Source: Synechocystis sp. PCC 6803 substr. PCC-P
Lineage (GTDB): Bacteria; Cyanobacteriota; Cyanobacteriia; Cyanobacteriales; Microcystaceae
Direction: 5' to 3'
Length of the DNA: 32,000 nucleotides
Assembly: GCF_000284455.1 (NCBI RefSeq)
Contig: NC_017039.1
Coordinates: 2,070,001 to 2,102,000 of the forward strand
Under the pieces are notes generated by a model. It was given only the letters and a program-made list of their open reading frames with translations, did no database searches and was not told the origin of the DNA. Position numbers and translations under genes: made by a program. Positions 8,509 to 13,937 of the stretch are shown one piece after another (positions within the stretch are counted from its first letter, which is position 1; the number at the start of each line of letters is the position of its first letter).

Positions 8509-8524
8509 TGTGATCCAGATCACA
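8509..8524 (+). promoter_or_regulatory. Perfect CRP-family (SYCRP1-type) binding palindrome TGTGA-N6-TCACA
   Basis: TGTGATCCAGATCACA was read directly. Its centre at 8516.5 is 41.5 bp upstream of a start predicted from the TAAAAT -10-like hexamer at 8546-8551. The site lies ~190 bp upstream of the ATG at 8712. Confidence 0.6.
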
Positions 8525-8711: not shown

Positions 8712-10547
8712 ATGAATACTCGCTTTTTCCTCAATTTCCTCACTGCCCCCAAACGTAATGCCGGCTTTGCCATGCCCATGGTGATTATGGGCGGTTTGGT
8801 GATTACGGTGGCGGCCGCCGCTATTGCTATGAAGGGGATGAATGATCAAAATCAGGTCACAGCGAAGGCAGCTAAGTCCTCTAGTGACGCAGCAGCGGAG
8901 ACCGGCTTAGCGCGTGTTCAAGGTTTGCTTGCAAGCAGTAAATATGCAGCTCTTTTCGACGATTCTGATTGGGCAACCTTAATACAGTCGGATGGAACAC
9001 CAAACAGCGAAACTACCCTTGGAGCTGTTCTTGAAGAGCATCTAAATTCGGTATCAAGCAACAGTGGGTCTATCTGTAGTGAGGGGAGCTCTTCTGGCGT
9101 TGATTCGGCTAAACTTGCATCTCAAAAACAAGTCTTAGGCAAACTTCGTGAGTTAGCTACTGAAGCGTCTGCTGGTCAAGTAGAACCGATTAATAGCAAT
9201 AGCTCTTTTCGTATAGTAAGTTACAAAGTTGGAGTTGAAGAAGAGAACAAAGGCAAAATTCCCCAAGGTCAAGTTATTGGGCGTCTAGTTGTTGAGGGAG
9301 TGTCTAGCAAAGGAGCAACTGACGCCGTAACCCGTTTGATGGTGGATATTCCTATTTCTGGAAAACCAGGAACTTCCACTTTTGGTGGTTCGGATACGGT
9401 GCCTGCACTTTGGATATCAGAAGGCGGTGTTGATAAGGGTACTGCTGGTGACACTGTAGATACAACAGGTACTCCCGCTGTTCCTAAGACTGGTGAAATA
9501 AGAGGAAATATAGTCCTGGCAGGGTGTGGTTCCACAGATTTAACTGATGCTTATATTGATGATCTTAACTCAATACAGAACGCTGCTGGGGGATTTGCCG
9601 CTGTAAGGGCATCTACCCCAATGCCTTCCATCCCATTGTCGGCTTTAGCATCGGCAAGATCTCAGAATCGTGTATATACACTAAACGTGGGGAATAACGA
9701 TTCAATCTCTCTCCCCCGAAGTGGAGAACAGCCGGTTGACGGTTACTATTACTATGAATCTAGTAGTTTAGACAGAAAGTTTGAGCTTAACTTTGACAAT
9801 ACTGGAGGAAAGAAATACCGTCTGTATGTAACTGGTGACATTGGTAGAAATGCGGAAATCAACGGAACTTGTAATACAGCTGATGGTTGCCAGCCGACAG
9901 ATATCCAAATATTTGGTCTTTCGAGTAGTGGTTCAATTTGCATGAATGGAAACTCGAGCCGAACGACGAAAGCTTTTGTTCTTGCCCCCAATTACGATAT
10001 AGGTCGCACAGGAAATGGGAGTTATGAAGGAATGCTTTTGGGTAAGACTTATGCCAAAGGCAATTGTGCTGTAAATAATGGCAAATTGGCTGTTACCCAA
10101 ACCTCTCAAACCTGGGGATCGGTTCCTCCTGACCTACGTCCACTTACCGCTCCATCACCTACCCTTACATCATTTTCTAGCTGGTCTCAGATTGACTCCA
10201 GTTTAGCTGATGATGATGCTATAACTGAGCCCCCAATTTACACAGGTTCCTTCTTAACAGCTTCTTCTAGTCCATCTCCCAGTCCCAGTCCATCTCCTAG
10301 TCCCAGCCCGTCTCCCAGTCCCAGCCCATCTCCCAGTCCCAGTCCATCTCCCAGTCCCAGCCCGTCTCCCAGTCCCAGTCCATCTCCCAGTCCCAGTCCA
10401 TCTCCCAGTCCCAGCCCATCTCCCAGTCCCAGCCCATCTCCTACCCCAGTTACCGTAAATGTACAGAACAAGAAGGCTTGCGATGATCTAGGAGGGACGT
10501 ACTCTCAAAGCGGGAATAACAAAACCTGTACTTACATTCCTCGGTAG
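8712..10547 (+). CDS. PilX-N-like (type IV pilus minor-pilin / pseudopilin-like) secreted protein with a C-terminal (SP)n stalk and a terminal two-Cys mini-domain
   Basis: 611 aa. The N-terminus [27 protein letters not shown] followed by AAETGLARV resembles the PilX N-terminal hydrophobic segment. The central region is Gly/Ser/Thr/Asn-rich. It has 30 consecutive (S/T)-P dipeptides and ends in ...[25 protein letters not shown]. Confidence 0.65.
10269..10448 (+). repeat. Tandem repeat: 10 copies of an 18-bp unit (AGY CCR TCT CCY AGT CCC) encoding (SP)29-TP
   Basis: I counted units starting at 10269, 10287, 10305, 10323, 10341, 10359, 10377, 10395, 10413 and 10431. They are in frame with the CDS that starts at 8712. 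Confidence 0.95.
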
Positions 10548-10619
10548 CCCGTAGAGTGTTTTCCTCCCCCTTCATTAAGCCCAAAAATCTCTAGCAAAAC
10601 AATATCAAAATTACTTTAG

Positions 10620-10646
10620 GCAGACTCCAGCAGTTTGCTTTTTTTT
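10620..10646 (+). terminator. Intrinsic terminator candidate downstream of the PilX-like gene
   Basis: GCAGACT-CCAGC-AGTTTGC forms a 7-bp stem with one G-U pair, followed by T8 (10639-10646). Confidence 0.5.
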
Positions 10647-10690
10647 GCTTATTTTCCCAGAATTAAAGGCACAACCGTAAAGATAGAATT

Positions 10691-11743
10691 TTACTTCTTT
10701 CTCACCCAACCATTAATGGTAAATCGACTATCTGCAAAAGCTTGGGAAGGACAGTTTACTGGTAGAACTTCGTGCATATAGCGACTGAGAAAAAAGACAA
10801 TGCTGTTATTAACTGGCTGTACAGTTTTAAATGATTCAGCGGCTACATAAAAATTATTTTCGATTTTACTGTCATAAATGGCTAGCTCTCCACCAGAAAA
10901 GGCTTTAGGCTCTCGGTTAAAGTAATAAACATAGGTTAATTCACGGGTAGCAGAATCGGGGCTACCATTATCATTATGTACTTTGTAATAATTTCCATGG
11001 TTATGGGCAGTAAGTTGAGCTTCTACATAATCAATTTGAAAAGGTTGTATTTGTAGATCACTAATCAGTTGGGGTAAAATTGCCTTTACTCGTTCTATTA
11101 TTAATTCTGAAAACGGCGCAAAAATCGGCAAAAACATAGAGCGACGATAATCAGAATCATTAGCTGAATTGCTTGTAGGCAGGAAATTATTTTCATTCTG
11201 AATTACAAATTTAAACAACTGCTCTAACTCTGTAGCACTCAAAAAATCTTTCACCTGAATAAAATGGGATGGCAAAATTTCTGGTGAAGCTTGGGGAGTA
11301 GCTGAAGTAGACTGTCGCTCTATCTGAATTTGACCTATAGATGAATTATTAGATAAGTTTTTATAAAAGTTGTGATTAATTAGAAATGAAGGTGCGTAGG
11401 ATTCTTCAGCTTGGCTAACAGTTGATTGTGAAGAGGATTCGACTTGAGACTGGTTAATAATTTGCCAAAGTTTGTAATTACCCTGATGGCTAACTAAAGT
11501 GCAAACAAAATTTCGCCAAGCAAACTGAAATAATACCTCTTGAGTTTTCAACATATTTAAGGTGTCTGCATCAAACTCTAGCAAAATACACAATTCTTCC
11601 GTCGTTATCCAGAATTCGGAATCACTAACTTGCTTAACTAAGTTAAGTTGCTGAATTACCGCATGAAGTTTACTTTGCAATGGTTCTTGCATGATTCTGG
11701 TCATAGTAGTTAAAAGAGTATTGACAATCTCTTCAATAATCAT
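10691..11743 (-). CDS. 2OG/Fe(II)-dependent oxygenase, prolyl-4-hydroxylase-like C-terminal domain, with an uncharacterised N-terminal ~165 aa
   Basis: 350 aa. The C-terminal domain has HxD (KVHNDNG), a distal His (SRYMHEVLPV), the 2OG-binding Arg context (SRFTINGWV) and ELTYVYYFN...FSGGELAIYD, typical of the P4H / 2OG-FeII_Oxy_3-type fold. No signal peptide is visible. Confidence 0.75.
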   Translation of the reverse strand: MIIEEIVNTLLTTMTRIMQEPLQSKLHAVIQQLNLVKQVSDSEFWITTEELCILLEFDADTLNMLKTQEVLFQFAWRNFVCTLVSHQGNYKLWQIINQSQVESSSQSTVSQAEESYAPSFLINHNFYKNLSNNSSIGQIQIERQSTSATPQASPEILPSHFIQVKDFLSATELEQLFKFVIQNENNFLPTSNSANDSDYRRSMFLPIFAPFSELIIERVKAILPQLISDLQIQPFQIDYVEAQLTAHNHGNYYKVHNDNGSPDSATRELTYVYYFNREPKAFSGGELAIYDSKIENNFYVAAESFKTVQPVNNSIVFFLSRYMHEVLPVNCPSQAFADSRFTINGWVRKK

Positions 11744-11969
11744 TTTCTCATGATCAAAATCCTTTAGGCAGATCCCAGTGGTTTATCTTCTTTTTTGGCC
11801 GCTTTTTCTGTGGTGGCATTTCTGGTCTGAGGTTATTTGGCGGTCAAGAATAGGATAGCGCTTGGCGATCAGGGGGGAGAGGTTGACAGATGCCCAGCCC
11901 TATTGGCAGTGGGCTTGCTGAGCTTGTGTTAGCATAGAGCTATTATCGATTGATTAAGATGTCAAAACT

Positions 11970-12197
11970 ATGACCAAACCAACGATAGAACTATCAGAGA
12001 GTGTATTTAAAAAAATTCAGGTACTTTCTCCGGAAAACCAAAAACAAATTCTAGATTTTCTAGAATCTATAACAGCAAATTCCGATGAAACTCAAGAAAA
12101 AAAAGCAACTAGAATTTCAGGATTGTATCAAGGACAAGGCTGGATAAGTGATGATTTTAATGATCCTCTAACGGATGAGTTTTTTTCGGAAGTCTGA
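11970..12197 (+). CDS. Type II antitoxin, DUF2281/VapB-like
   Basis: 75 aa. The C-terminal G.GWISDDFNDPLTDEF motif is typical of DUF2281 antitoxins that pair with PIN toxins. Its stop is 3 nt before the ATG of the PIN gene. Confidence 0.7.
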   Translation: MTKPTIELSESVFKKIQVLSPENQKQILDFLESITANSDETQEKKATRISGLYQGQGWISDDFNDPLTDEFFSEV

Positions 12198-12200
12198 TTT

Positions 12201-12587
12201 ATGGAACTGCTGTTAGATACTCATGCCTTTGTTTGGTGATCAATTGCTCAGGAAAAACTATCTTCAAAAGTAAGTTCTTTATTGTCAAACACAAGTAACA
12301 AAATATTTTTGAGTACAGCAAGTGCATGGGAGATACAAATTAAACTGCAACTTGGAAAGTTACAACTTAACATTTCCCCAGAAGAATTAATCAAAAATCA
12401 AATGACCATCAATGGTTTGCAGGTTCTGTCTATTGACTTGGAGCATATCTGGAAACTGGCGGTTCTTGAACATCACCATAAAGATCCCTTTGATCGAATC
12501 TTAATTGCCCAATCTATGACCGAAGAAATTCCGATTTTAAGTATTGATAAAGTCTTCGATCTTTACCCGGTTCAAAAACTTTGGTAA
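12201..12587 (+). pseudogene. vapC: PIN-domain VapC toxin interrupted by an in-frame TGA at codon 13
   Basis: The ATG at 12201 gives MELLLDTHAFVW, then TGA at 12237-12239. The same frame continues SIAQEKLSS... into ORF 12282..12587. The joined protein has PIN hallmarks: LLLDTH, SAWEIQIK, DPFDRILIAQ and ILSID. Confidence 0.75.
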
Positions 12588-12688
12588 CTGTTCAGGCGGT
12601 CAGGGTTAACTGACGATCAAGGATCGGATTGTGCTTGGCGATCGGGTATTAACGGCGATCCACATTAACCATGGGCTTATTTCCACCA

Positions 12689-12697
12689 TGCTAGAAT
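12689..12697 (+). promoter_or_regulatory. Extended -10 element (TGcTAGAAT) upstream of brnT
   Basis: TG-C-TAGAAT was read at 12689-12697, ~50 bp upstream of the brnT ATG. No good -35 is visible. Confidence 0.35.
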
Positions 12698-12748
12698 AGG
12701 GGCACAACTGACTTAAAGCAGTGTCTCCCACAGATTAGCGACCTTAAA

Positions 12749-13033
12749 ATGAATTCACTTTCTTTTGAATGGGACGAAGAAAAGAATCGAACCAATCAGA
12801 AAAAACATGGTATTTCTTTTGAGGAAGCTGAGACTGTTTTCTACGATGACAATGCTATTCAGTTTTGGGATGATAATCATTCAGAAGTAGAAGATAGATT
12901 CCTAATGCTGGGTAGAAGTTCCAGAATGAGAATCCTGCTAATTGTTCACTGCTTCCAAGAGAATGAATCTATCATCAGAATTATTTCTGCTCGCAAGGCT
13001 ACTCCTAAAGAAACGAAACAATATAGAGGATAA
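12749..13033 (+). CDS. brnT: BrnT-family (DUF497) ribonuclease toxin
   Basis: 94 aa. FEWDEEKNRTNQKKHGISFEEAETVF and the later RIISARKATPKE are typical BrnT signatures. The toxin-first gene order fits this family. Confidence 0.8.
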   Translation: MNSLSFEWDEEKNRTNQKKHGISFEEAETVFYDDNAIQFWDDNHSEVEDRFLMLGRSSRMRILLIVHCFQENESIIRIISARKATPKETKQYRG

Positions 13034-13037
13034 TATT

Positions 13038-13244
13038 ATGAAGAAAGAGTATGATCTAGCCAACATGAAAAGCCGTCCTAATCCTTTTGCTCAAAAGCTT
13101 AAACAAAAAGTTACTTTACCTTTGGGAATTGATGTAGTTGATTTTTTTGAAAAGAAAGCACAAGAAAAAGGCATTTCTTATCAAGAAATAATTGAATTAT
13201 ATCTTCAAGATTGTGTTGTTAATAATCGAGAACTTTCATTTTAA
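13038..13244 (+). CDS. brnA: BrnA-family antitoxin
   Basis: I use the internal ATG at 13038 of ORF 12942..13244, 4 nt after the brnT stop. The 68-aa product ends in a ribbon-helix-helix-like segment (GISYQEIIELYLQD). The upstream extension would overlap brnT. Confidence 0.7.
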   Translation: MKKEYDLANMKSRPNPFAQKLKQKVTLPLGIDVVDFFEKKAQEKGISYQEIIELYLQDCVVNNRELSF

Positions 13245-13299
13245 ATGCTCAGCTGACGGACAGGTGTTTTTGTGTTTGTAACCAGAGTAGCTCTCAAAT

Positions 13300-13569
13300 A
13301 TGAAACCATCTATTTCAGAAACTACCAACTCCATATTCCCCAATGGGCAGGACTCAGCTTCGCCGGGATTACTTTCACGTTTGTGGTCTTGGATCAACTC
13401 CTACGGGGGTTTGTCCGACTTGAAGAAGTACAACGCCGAACTGAGGAAGAGCAACGCCGAATTAAGCAAACAGAACGAGAAACTCGCCGAGCTAGAATTG
13501 AAACTCGATAACGTATTGCAATCATCCAGCACCAACTTGACCCCAACAATCTCCACCGACAACAATTAG
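13300..13569 (+). CDS. Hypothetical small coiled-coil protein (coding status uncertain)
   Basis: 89-aa ORF with the heptad-like run YNAELRKSNAELSKQNEKLAELELKLDN. No obvious SD. A second frame (13272..13511) is open across the same DNA, so this may be a gene remnant. Confidence 0.3.
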   Translation: MKPSISETTNSIFPNGQDSASPGLLSRLWSWINSYGGLSDLKKYNAELRKSNAELSKQNEKLAELELKLDNVLQSSSTNLTPTISTDNN

Positions 13570-13685
13570 GGGATATTCAAGCACTTCTCGAAGAATATCT
13601 AGATACCCTTTAGCCAATTGGCTATCTGTGAGGTATTGGCAATCGGGCTAAAATGGGGGAAACTTTGCCCCAACAATTGCCAAAC

Positions 13686-13937
13686 ATGAACGCAGTCAGC
13701 CAAATTATTGCACAACAAAAACTTGCAGCTATCATGGAGCAAGTATGTAGTGATCATGTTCCAACAATTATCACCAGGGATACCCAACCATCTGTCGTCA
13801 TGATTTCCCTGGAAGACTATCAGTCATTAGAAGAAACAGCATATCTACTACGTAGCCCGAACAATGCTCAAAAATTGATGTCGGCGATCAAGCAATTAGA
13901 AAATGATCAAGGTGTCGAAAGGGAACTATTGGAGTGA
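13686..13937 (+). CDS. yefM: Type II antitoxin, Phd/YefM family (second copy)
   Basis: Starting at the internal ATG (MNAVSQIIAQQKLAAIMEQV...), it aligns with the antitoxin at 2521. It shares ISLEDYQSLEETAYLLRSPNNAQKLMSAIKQ. Its stop overlaps the GTG of the downstream yoeB remnant. Confidence 0.8.
   Translation: MNAVSQIIAQQKLAAIMEQVCSDHVPTIITRDTQPSVVMISLEDYQSLEETAYLLRSPNNAQKLMSAIKQLENDQGVERELLE

Follow-up and report, generated by a model that had tools for sequence, protein, structure and literature searches.

The 32,000-nt stretch of the Synechocystis sp. PCC 6803 chromosome analyzed here (the window, to whose numbering feature positions refer unless a locus is named) encodes a minor pilin with a long Ser-Pro stalk next to a candidate prolyl hydroxylase. 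The pilin gene, pilX2 (slr0442; 8712-10547, plus strand), encodes a PilX-type minor pilin of type IV pili of 611 amino acids (aa), and sll0428 (10691-11743, minus strand; 350 aa) converges on it across a gap of 143 nt. In the reading that we favor, and to which we give a probability of about 0.5, Sll0428 is a soluble cytoplasmic 2-oxoglutarate (2OG)- and Fe(II)-dependent prolyl hydroxylase for which the (SP)29TP tract of PilX2 would be the likeliest substrate in PCC 6803. The locus is hypervariable, and its stalk and enzyme behave like matched partners; the alternative pair consists of a Ser-rich stalk and a PMT-family O-mannosyltransferase. The same oxygenase family also appears to serve (AP)n and (TP)n linkers of exosortase-sorted PEP-CTERM proteins in Nostocales. 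A relation of enzyme and substrate is the best explanation because it covers together the pairing of Pro stalks with the oxygenase, that of Ser stalks with PMT, and a second pairing with X-Pro (XP) tracts in Nostocales. The interpretation of the two neighbors as substrate and enzyme, put forward in an earlier note on this DNA, is partly supported by the analysis.

PilX2 and Sll0428

We equate the open reading frame (ORF) at 8712-10547 with slr0442 because a binding site of SyCRP1 (cAMP receptor protein) and an array probe match exactly, and because slr0442 is the gene named pilX2, the ΔpilX2 mutant being defined as slr0442::Km. The site, TGTGATCCAGATCACA, has a single occurrence in the window (8509-8524, upstream of pilX2) and is identical to the one assigned to slr0442 in Table 1 of PMC2633013; the published slr0442 probe matches 9505-9553. 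The protein that the earlier note had called PilX-like is accordingly PilX2. The convergent ORF at 10691-11743 encodes exactly the Sll0428 protein of PCC 6803. Sll0428 was also present exactly in a collection of 15 billion proteins, in which the 611-aa PilX2 itself was not found and its best homolog was at most 45% identical; differences in the length of the SP tract between substrains, another annotated start, or filtering of low-complexity candidates are possible reasons for this absence.

The conserved 5′ end of pilX2 (8712-8870, plus strand; aa 1 to 53) encodes the prepilin leader and the alpha1N segment and forms the left boundary of a hypervariable region, since blastn homology to strains B12, CACIAM 05, and PCC 7339 and to Synechocystis salina stops in every case at 8860-8870. 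The leader ends in glycine (KRNAG, followed by FAMPM), with methionine rather than glutamate at position +5, and a hydrophobic helix comes next (Kyte-Doolittle value of 2.18 at aa 22). An AlphaFold2 (AF2) model of the body, with a predicted local distance difference test (pLDDT) value of 72.6, shows a long N-terminal helix (aa 24 to 75) and a β-rich body (aa 320 to 450). Foldseek returned no significant match for this body in the PDB, the best being an ice-binding β-solenoid (E = 0.2), and Pfam gave only a weak, subthreshold match to DUF7305. A PilX_N domain has been reported in Slr0442 (Oeser et al.), and a 2026 preprint describes PilX2 as a pilin fold with an inserted β-solenoid that is required for assembling motility-type pili and for sensing surfaces in a cAMP-dependent manner. 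Given the lack of a significant Foldseek match, the β-solenoid is taken here from that preprint.

The tract of 29 SP dipeptides and one TP dipeptide occupies aa 520 to 579 (10269-10448, plus strand) and is the candidate hydroxylation substrate and tether. It is the longest (S/T)P run of the protein, with exactly the 30 consecutive dipeptides that the earlier note had counted, and its DNA repeats with an 18-nt period (9.4 copies, 92% matches). No other tract of at least six XP dipeptides was found in any frame of the 32-kb window. Folded as a polyproline-II (PPII) helix, the tract would span about 18.6 nm (60 × 0.31 nm). It is followed by a C-terminal end of 32 aa (10449-10547, plus strand, with the stop codon) that carries Cys590 and Cys606 and may form a disulfide loop; a short two-Cys motif of this type (C-x8-15-C) ends every syntenic PilX2 allele after the stalk. 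The tract sits inside a tryptic peptide of 129 residues (aa 459 to 587), and standard tryptic proteomics would therefore be unable to detect its modification. On the opposite strand, an ORF of 77 aa with GLGD repeats (10238-10471, minus strand) was rejected as a gene, being the reverse-strand reading of the SP repeat. Microcystis-like PilX homologs (locus L090, 1241-2902; P0151) have a Cys followed by a short C-terminal PTPSPSPSP or ASPSPSP tail, which resembles a miniature Synechocystis stalk; no oxygenase lies near these two genes.

Sll0428 matches the Pfam family PF13640 (2OG-FeII_Oxy_3) over aa 243 to 348 (E = 6.5e−20; 72.3 bits against a cutoff of 27). H256 and D258 (within HND, 256 to 258), H324, and R340 are invariant across 22 diverse homologs, and so are the ELTYVYYF and GGEL stretches. 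An AF2 model built on 22 homologs (mean pLDDT of 77.5) comprises a small, confidently predicted N-terminal α/β domain of helices and a three-stranded sheet (aa ∼30 to 100), a disordered linker (aa 103 to 151), and a confidently predicted double-stranded β-helix (DSBH), with β-strands across aa 237 to 349. As delimited by alignment and model, the catalytic DSBH domain with H256, D258, H324, and R340 covers aa ∼155 to 350 (10694-11281, minus strand; pLDDT mostly 85 to 97); the N-terminal accessory domain, for which Pfam gave no match, covers aa ∼18 to 100 (11444-11692, minus strand; pLDDT of ∼90). The protein has no hydrophobic segment (the maximum Kyte-Doolittle value of a 19-mer is 1.23) and therefore no signal peptide, and many of its homologs begin at M18 with a polar N terminus. 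With neither signal peptide nor anchor, a location in the secretory pathway, as for the prolyl 4-hydroxylases (P4Hs) of collagen, plants, and algae, was rejected. The P4H-like HxD...H...R arrangement, the convergent position 143 bp downstream of pilX2, and the lack of a signal peptide, all described in the earlier note, were thus confirmed.

Foldseek gave 295 matches to this model in the PDB at E ≤ 1e−3, with DSBH hydroxylases leading. Ranks 1 to 11 are all protein prolyl hydroxylases, headed by Pseudomonas PPHD (4j25/4iw3; E = 2.5e−10) and followed by Dictyostelium DdPhyA (6t8m) and then human PHD2. The sole significant PDB match by sequence was also 6t8m (E = 1.2e−7 and 3.3e−8). PiuC, 3dkq, and PolD came below these enzymes at ranks 12, 31, and 44, and the algal P4H 3gze was found at rank 37 (E = 3e−7; 14% identity; root mean square deviation of 8.1), without a sequence match. 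A Tpa1/Ofd1 assignment, taken from an automatic COG label of JGI, was rejected because Sll0428 has a single DSBH in 350 aa, against two tandem DSBH in ∼500 to 600 aa; Tpa1 and OGFOD1 matched it through one domain only (TM-score to the target of 0.26 to 0.29). The PKHD/PiuC (YbiX) type was rejected as well, with a score of 20.6 bits (E = 2.5e−4) for NCBIfam PRK05467 against a cutoff of 143. As PPHD, DdPhyA, and PHD2 lead the structural ranking and the Tpa1 and PKHD labels misfit, the predicted structure places Sll0428 most plausibly in the PHD/P4H superfamily, as a protein prolyl hydroxylase of cytoplasmic rather than plant secretory type. It thereby clusters with neither Tpa1/Ofd1 nor PiuC, two subfamilies that the earlier note had named beside P4H. 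The parallel with plant and algal P4Hs drawn in that note stands at the level of the superfamily, but the enzyme is nearer to the cytoplasmic PHD/PPHD type.

These matches also bear on the idea that the oxygenase acts on a nonprotein substrate or small molecule, such as a free amino acid, a lipid, or a precursor of a polysaccharide or sheath, and that its neighbors only share a cell-surface theme with it. PF13640 includes enzymes with nonprotein or unknown substrates, PiuC, 3dkq, and PolD are among the Foldseek matches, the weak match to PRK05467 points in the same direction, and the homologs of loci L096 and L097 lie near sugar-nucleotide or glycosyltransferase genes. We hold this idea to be very unlikely, considering the PKHD score so short of its cutoff, the top 11 structural matches, and the alternation of Pro stalk/oxygenase and Ser stalk/PMT at the pilX2 locus, which it leaves unexplained.

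Stalks and enzymes at the pilX2 locus of Synechocystis

PilX2 is hypervariable. Its syntenic homologs are ∼40% identical to the PCC 6803 protein (39 to 45% for the body among PCC 6803, CACIAM 05, and the metagenome contig L094), while the flanking DNA is 94 to 98% identical (CACIAM 05, B12), a pattern suggesting that this surface-exposed tip protein is subject to recombination or diversifying selection. The first 53 aa are kept in all alleles, and the bodies are of at least five types (A to E). Every allele has a low-complexity stalk before its two-Cys motif, and the chemistry of the stalk varies. SP-rich stalks go with the oxygenase in PCC 6803 (body A, (SP)29TP), in CACIAM 05 (locus L001; body B, (SP)22-24 and then TP repeats; oxygenase 92% identical), and in the metagenome contigs L094/L095 (body C, (SP)37; oxygenase 81% identical). 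Ser-rich stalks, with merely 4 to 5 prolines in the last 100 aa, go with a PMT gene in PCC 7339 (L085), S. salina (L098), and B12 (L086), all with body B, and in S. salina LEGE 06099 (L099), with body D. No enzyme accompanies the (GGGTT)n stalk of L100 (body E), the mixed S/P/T stalk of L101 (body B), or the TP/VPA-rich stalk of the P0128 contig, whose body is unassigned.

The PMT genes encode 499-aa PMT-family O-mannosyltransferases and occupy the same convergent slot as the oxygenase. The one at 9880-11379 of L085 matches PF02366 (E = 4.8e−30) and PF16192 (PMT_4TMC; E = 4.7e−16), and the same domains were found in L086, L098, and L099. The PMT gene of L099 (7508-9021) is broken up into two ORFs, of 174 aa and 331 aa, and may be a pseudogene; it stands behind an inserted toxin-antitoxin pair containing HicA, which separates it from pilX2.

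Stalk type matches the enzyme in all seven enzyme-bearing cases, Ser-rich stalks being found with PMT in four of four. Since body B occurs with the oxygenase, with PMT, and without an enzyme, stalk type tracks the enzyme and not the PilX2 body. From this context we infer that PMT and Ser-rich stalk form a pair in Synechocystis. The comparison of CACIAM 05 with B12 locates the difference: their DNA is 91.6% identical through recN and the pilX2 body, to about aa 526, shows no homology from the stalk through the C-terminal end and the intergenic region to the end of the enzyme gene, and becomes homologous again 25 nt past the enzyme start codon. The window itself differs from B12 over 8870-11768, that is, over pilX2 past aa 53 and the entire sll0428. 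A metagenome scan with the PilX2 alignment recovered seven loci, mostly too short to include the neighbor, and gave no further pairs of stalk and enzyme; the stalks of the P0147 and P0128 contigs are followed by small ORFs and not by an enzyme gene.

The earlier note had seen flanking repeats around the oxygenase gene and had taken it for an independently inserted cassette. The repeats are indeed there, as a 39-nt direct repeat (74% identity) on either side of sll0428. Its left copy (10608-10646, plus strand) includes a terminator-like hairpin downstream of pilX2 (10618-10640), followed by a T-run, TTTTTTGCTT; its right copy, located by a repeat search (11756-11794, plus strand), starts 13 nt beyond the start codon of sll0428. 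Homology of the window returns at 10598 for CACIAM 05 and at 11768-11781 for B12. A junction element identified by blastn (11746-11880) is found again in other strains at the borders of the cassettes that lie downstream of pilX2, with copies adjoining oxygenase, PMT, and toxin-antitoxin cassettes (L001, L085, L086, L094, L099, L100, and L101). Repeats and structure thus agree with a cassette, but the idea of an independent insertion needs qualifying, for CACIAM 05 differs from B12 in a single contiguous block that takes in the enzyme gene and also the 3′ end of pilX2, which encodes the stalk.

A gene in such a place could also be a bystander. Sll0428 might be a housekeeping hydroxylase of the PPHD/PHD type, acting on EF-Tu or on a ribosomal or translation factor and perhaps involved in oxygen sensing, that happens to lie at a cassette hot spot, with the SP tract as a flexible linker that is unmodified or modified otherwise. 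The 39-nt repeats that bracket it, its position in a low-GC toxin-antitoxin island with recurring junction elements (the G+C content drops to 37% over 11 to 13 kb of the window), and the existence of P-rich stalks without an adjacent oxygenase (L101, P0128) would suit such an enzyme. Its replacement by a PMT gene in the near-isogenic B12, whose flanks are 94 to 98% identical, would be unexpected, and the occurrence of this Ser/Thr-modifying replacement exactly at the Ser-rich stalks, in four of four cases, would go unexplained. We regard a housekeeping role as unlikely, though likelier than the other alternatives.

The toxin-antitoxin island extends between sll0428 and psbO (11970-13937; G+C content of 37%). 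Its members are DUF2281 and PIN genes (11970-12587), BrnT with a CopG-like antitoxin (12749-13244), and a Phd/YefM antitoxin (13653-13937). The cassettes that it contains vary by Synechocystis strain, and the junction repeats between them recur, for instance at 11831-11873 and 12604-12646. A small ORF, whose product combines a hydrophobic segment at the N terminus with a charged tail (RLEE.QRR...ERETRR.RIETRYR), is a repeated neighbor of pilX-like genes in several Synechocystis-like contigs; it was found in the window at 13272-13511 and in L085 (11589-11891), L087 (6-985, two copies), L088 (7938-8384), and L092 (320-634).

Oxygenase homologs and their neighbors in other cyanobacteria

The Sll0428 family is large and essentially cyanobacterial, with 1,363 matches and 495 relatives in species-representative genomes. 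The catalytic domain is 60 to 68% identical among Synechocystis, Nostocales (Nostoc), and Oscillatoriales (Microcoleus), and the N-terminal domain exists in at least two unrelated versions, one of Synechocystis/Pseudanabaena type and one of Nostocales type. The neighborhoods of 84 loci with an oxygenase homolog (1.39 Mb of cyanobacterial DNA) were surveyed. A PilX2 homolog within 10 kb of the oxygenase was found among them only in Synechocystis sp. CACIAM 05. At the loci of Nostocales type, the gene directly downstream of the oxygenase encodes a PEP-CTERM surface protein in 31 of 32 cases, always on the same strand and at a median distance of 489 nt. The assignment to PEP-CTERM is based on TIGR02595, which exceeded its cutoff in 3 of 4 representatives, one of which also matched XDD4 (E = 3.5e−44).

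Long XP tracts, of up to ∼80 dipeptides, are present in 29 of these 31 partners, where X is mostly alanine (A, 1,217; T, 204; V, 27; S, 23). Tracts of at least six XP dipeptides occur in 32 of the 1,255 other ORFs of the 1.39 Mb, and 29 of the 32 lie at position +1 of the oxygenase, so that only 3 of the ∼1,200 ORFs that do not adjoin an oxygenase homolog carry one. The adjacency of oxygenase and PEP-CTERM gene (31/32) exceeds those that flank it, hflX-oxygenase (26/33) and PEP-CTERM-grx (22/28), and the pair persists through rearrangements and one inversion (L046, L049, L062, L068, L072, and L076). The neighborhood that the earlier note had described in a single strain thus recurs: the oxygenase stands beside an (SP)n PilX2 in three Synechocystis lineages with different bodies and beside PEP-CTERM genes in Nostocales.

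All these Nostocales partners share a signal peptide, an XP linker (where present, ∼13 to ∼80 dipeptides), a YYQPP motif, and the PEP-CTERM end; at least four unrelated types of globular domain (clusters c13, c31, c34, and c130) replace one another between them. Examples are found at L002 (11400-12362), L048 (11063-12673), L049 (11202-12044), and L072 (11085-12164), besides ∼27 other loci. L002 is from Nostoc PCC 7107, and its oxygenase homolog spans 10001-10891. The motif offers another target for the enzyme, which could hydroxylate the prolines of YYQPPxPxPKKVPEPS before the PEP-CTERM anchor, in Nostocales or perhaps generally, with the adjacency in Synechocystis being unrelated. All the Nostocales partners have this motif, even those of L044 and L052, which lack an XP tract. 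We nevertheless consider it a very unlikely target, as PilX2 is devoid of a PEP-CTERM motif, long XP tracts are found in 29 of the 31 partners, and the alternation of Pro and Ser in Synechocystis involves the tract itself.

At loci of Microcoleus, Coleofasciculaceae, and Chroococcales (L051, L056, L074, L075, L078, L079, and L082), the oxygenase homolog is convergent with the gene of a conserved ankyrin-repeat protein of ∼490 aa, with a DUF4079-like membrane protein coming next. A different 2OG oxygenase, FIH, is known to hydroxylate ankyrin repeats, and the proximity observed here may be a coincidence.

Several observations weigh against XP tracts as the substrate. No XP neighbor was found at the Pseudanabaena loci (sppA-oxygenase), at those of Microcoleus and Coleofasciculus (purH-oxygenase, convergent with the ankyrin-repeat gene), or beside homologs that are 68 to 71% identical (L006, L096, and L097), and the partner proteins of two Nostoc loci (L044, L052) have no XP tract. 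Such loci, together with the strong conservation of the catalytic domain, fit a conserved housekeeping target. The closest structures (PPHD, PHD2, and PhyA) belong to enzymes that modify not repeats but a single, specific proline in a folded protein of the cytoplasm, and the first P4H of collagen/plant type is only 37th in the Foldseek ranking. In Synechocystis, a blind prediction that an oxygenase would follow the S/P/T-rich body-B allele P0133 failed at L101, whose 312-nt tail contains the junction element and no 3′ end of an oxygenase or PMT gene, and the TP/VPA-rich stalk of P0128 likewise has no oxygenase adjacent to it. Physical adjacency alone, through coinheritance, could explain part of the covariation of stalk and enzyme. 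The genes pilX2 and sll0428 are convergent and therefore not cotranscribed. Because Sll0428 has no signal peptide and its proposed substrates are exported, modification must precede translocation, and pilins are generally inserted cotranslationally. Finally, we know of no cyanobacterial pilin or PEP-CTERM protein in which hydroxyproline has been shown.

A housekeeping hydroxylase would agree with several of these points, namely, the identity of the top structural matches (PPHD, an EF-Tu hydroxylase, DdPhyA, and PHD2), the very strong conservation of the catalytic domain, and the wide spread of the family (495 relatives), most clades of which lack XP neighbors. It does not explain why the gene is retained beside PEP-CTERM genes across rearrangements in Nostocales (31/32, of which 29 have XP tracts), and the variable N-terminal accessory domain suggests recognition of lineage-specific partners.

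Proposed modification and its precedents

If Sll0428 modifies PilX2, the prolines of the XP tract would be hydroxylated on the cytoplasmic side, either ahead of Sec-dependent export or in the course of it. This disordered C-terminal tract would be the last part of the preprotein to be threaded through Sec. Once exported, the hydroxyproline-rich tract could form a stiffer, protease-resistant, and possibly glycosylated PPII tether of ∼15 to 20 nm, which would display the small two-Cys C-terminal end beyond the β-solenoid of PilX2 at the pilus tip.

The hydroxylation of X-Pro repeats is known from plants, green algae, and a chlorovirus. Chlamydomonas Cr-P4H-1 binds (Ser-Pro)5 (PDB 3gze). The plant and green algal P4Hs that act on Ser-Pro(n) glycoproteins share with Sll0428 the 2OG/Fe(II) DSBH fold and the HxD...H...R residues, and their extracellular substrates resemble the (SP)n/(XP)n candidates described here. 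Their site of action is the secretory pathway. Sll0428, by contrast, lacks a signal peptide, carries an unrelated domain at its N terminus, and matches them only distantly (14% identity), and no glycosyltransferase partner was identified for it here. The prolyl 4-hydroxylase of Chlorella virus PBCV-1 reportedly hydroxylates (PAPK)n-type repeats. It is a small, soluble enzyme acting on X-Pro repeats outside collagen, similar to the (AP)n and (TP)n tracts beside the Nostocales homologs, although in a viral/eukaryotic setting.

Bacterial homologs of P4H and PHD are also known. Prolyl hydroxylation targets include the LxxLAP motif of HIF (PHD type), switch I of EF-Tu (PPHD), and Skp1 (PhyA). PPHD and PHD2/EGLN1 are, like Sll0428, cytoplasmic enzymes with a single DSBH (E = 2.5e−10 to 1e−8; TM-score to the target of 0.6 to 0.73), but they act on one defined proline, and Sll0428 differs from them in its sequence (20 to 25% identity), in its extra N-terminal domain and disordered linker, in being replaceable between strains, and in its link to XP repeats. 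In the cytoplasm of Dictyostelium, DdPhyA hydroxylates Skp1, which is then glycosylated. The PhyA-Skp1 system of Dictyostelium and Toxoplasma thus shows, as a precedent, that prolyl hydroxylation in the cytoplasm can create a site for glycosylation, and its structure 6t8m is the sole significant sequence match of Sll0428 in the PDB; only one proline, in a cytoplasmic protein, is targeted, and the system uses dedicated glycosyltransferases, none of which adjoin sll0428.

For the exchange of stalk and enzyme, the nearest parallel is found in Pseudomonas, where modification genes linked to pilins are known. The pilin alleles of P. aeruginosa are said to fall into groups, each with accessory or modification genes of its own, such as tfpO/pilO and tfpW. 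The matching modification gene lies downstream, as at the pilX2 locus of Synechocystis, where it is a glycosyltransferase gene in the PMT strains. The polymorphism of P. aeruginosa concerns the major pilin, whereas that of Synechocystis concerns the tip minor pilin PilX2, with convergent enzyme genes and with a candidate hydroxylase as one of the alternatives; we know of no pilin whose modifying enzyme is a hydroxylase. Actinobacterial Pmt O-mannosylates Ser/Thr-rich secreted proteins, and the serine-rich repeat adhesins of Gram-positive bacteria are glycosylated before export. Both involve low-complexity surface stalks with dedicated enzymes, as we propose for PilX2, in a different phylum and on different proteins, and the adhesins provide a precedent for modification in the cytoplasm ahead of Sec export. 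Our literature search found no paper that mentions sll0428 and none that connects pilins or PEP-CTERM proteins with a prolyl hydroxylase of cyanobacteria, and sll0428 is not listed in the supplements of two pilin papers.

The stalk and enzyme pairs suggest, without proving it, that bacteria hydroxylate proline-rich surface tethers in a plant-like manner. More tentatively, at somewhat less than even odds, cyanobacteria would build extensin-like, hydroxyproline-rich, and perhaps glycosylated tethers with a cytoplasmic PHD-type hydroxylase acting before export, and stalk plus enzyme would be exchangeable modules at pilX2. This would be the first posttranslational hydroxylation of a pilin and a bacterial counterpart of the biogenesis of plant hydroxyproline-rich glycoproteins, and prolyl hydroxylation would join the modifications already known from type IV pilus and PEP-CTERM surface proteins. 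Low-complexity stalks would then not be passive linkers but would be accompanied by dedicated, exchangeable modifying enzymes. As PilX2 is needed for motility pili and surface sensing, the chemistry of its stalk could affect adhesion, phototaxis, and recognition by phages or predators. PCC 6803 is genetically tractable and ΔpilX2 strains exist, which makes the system directly testable and, if the proposal is right, a prokaryotic model for the construction of hydroxyproline-rich extracellular proteins. For the large, uncharacterized family of cyanobacterial 2OG oxygenases to which Sll0428 belongs, X-Pro repeat tethers would provide a class of physiological substrates.

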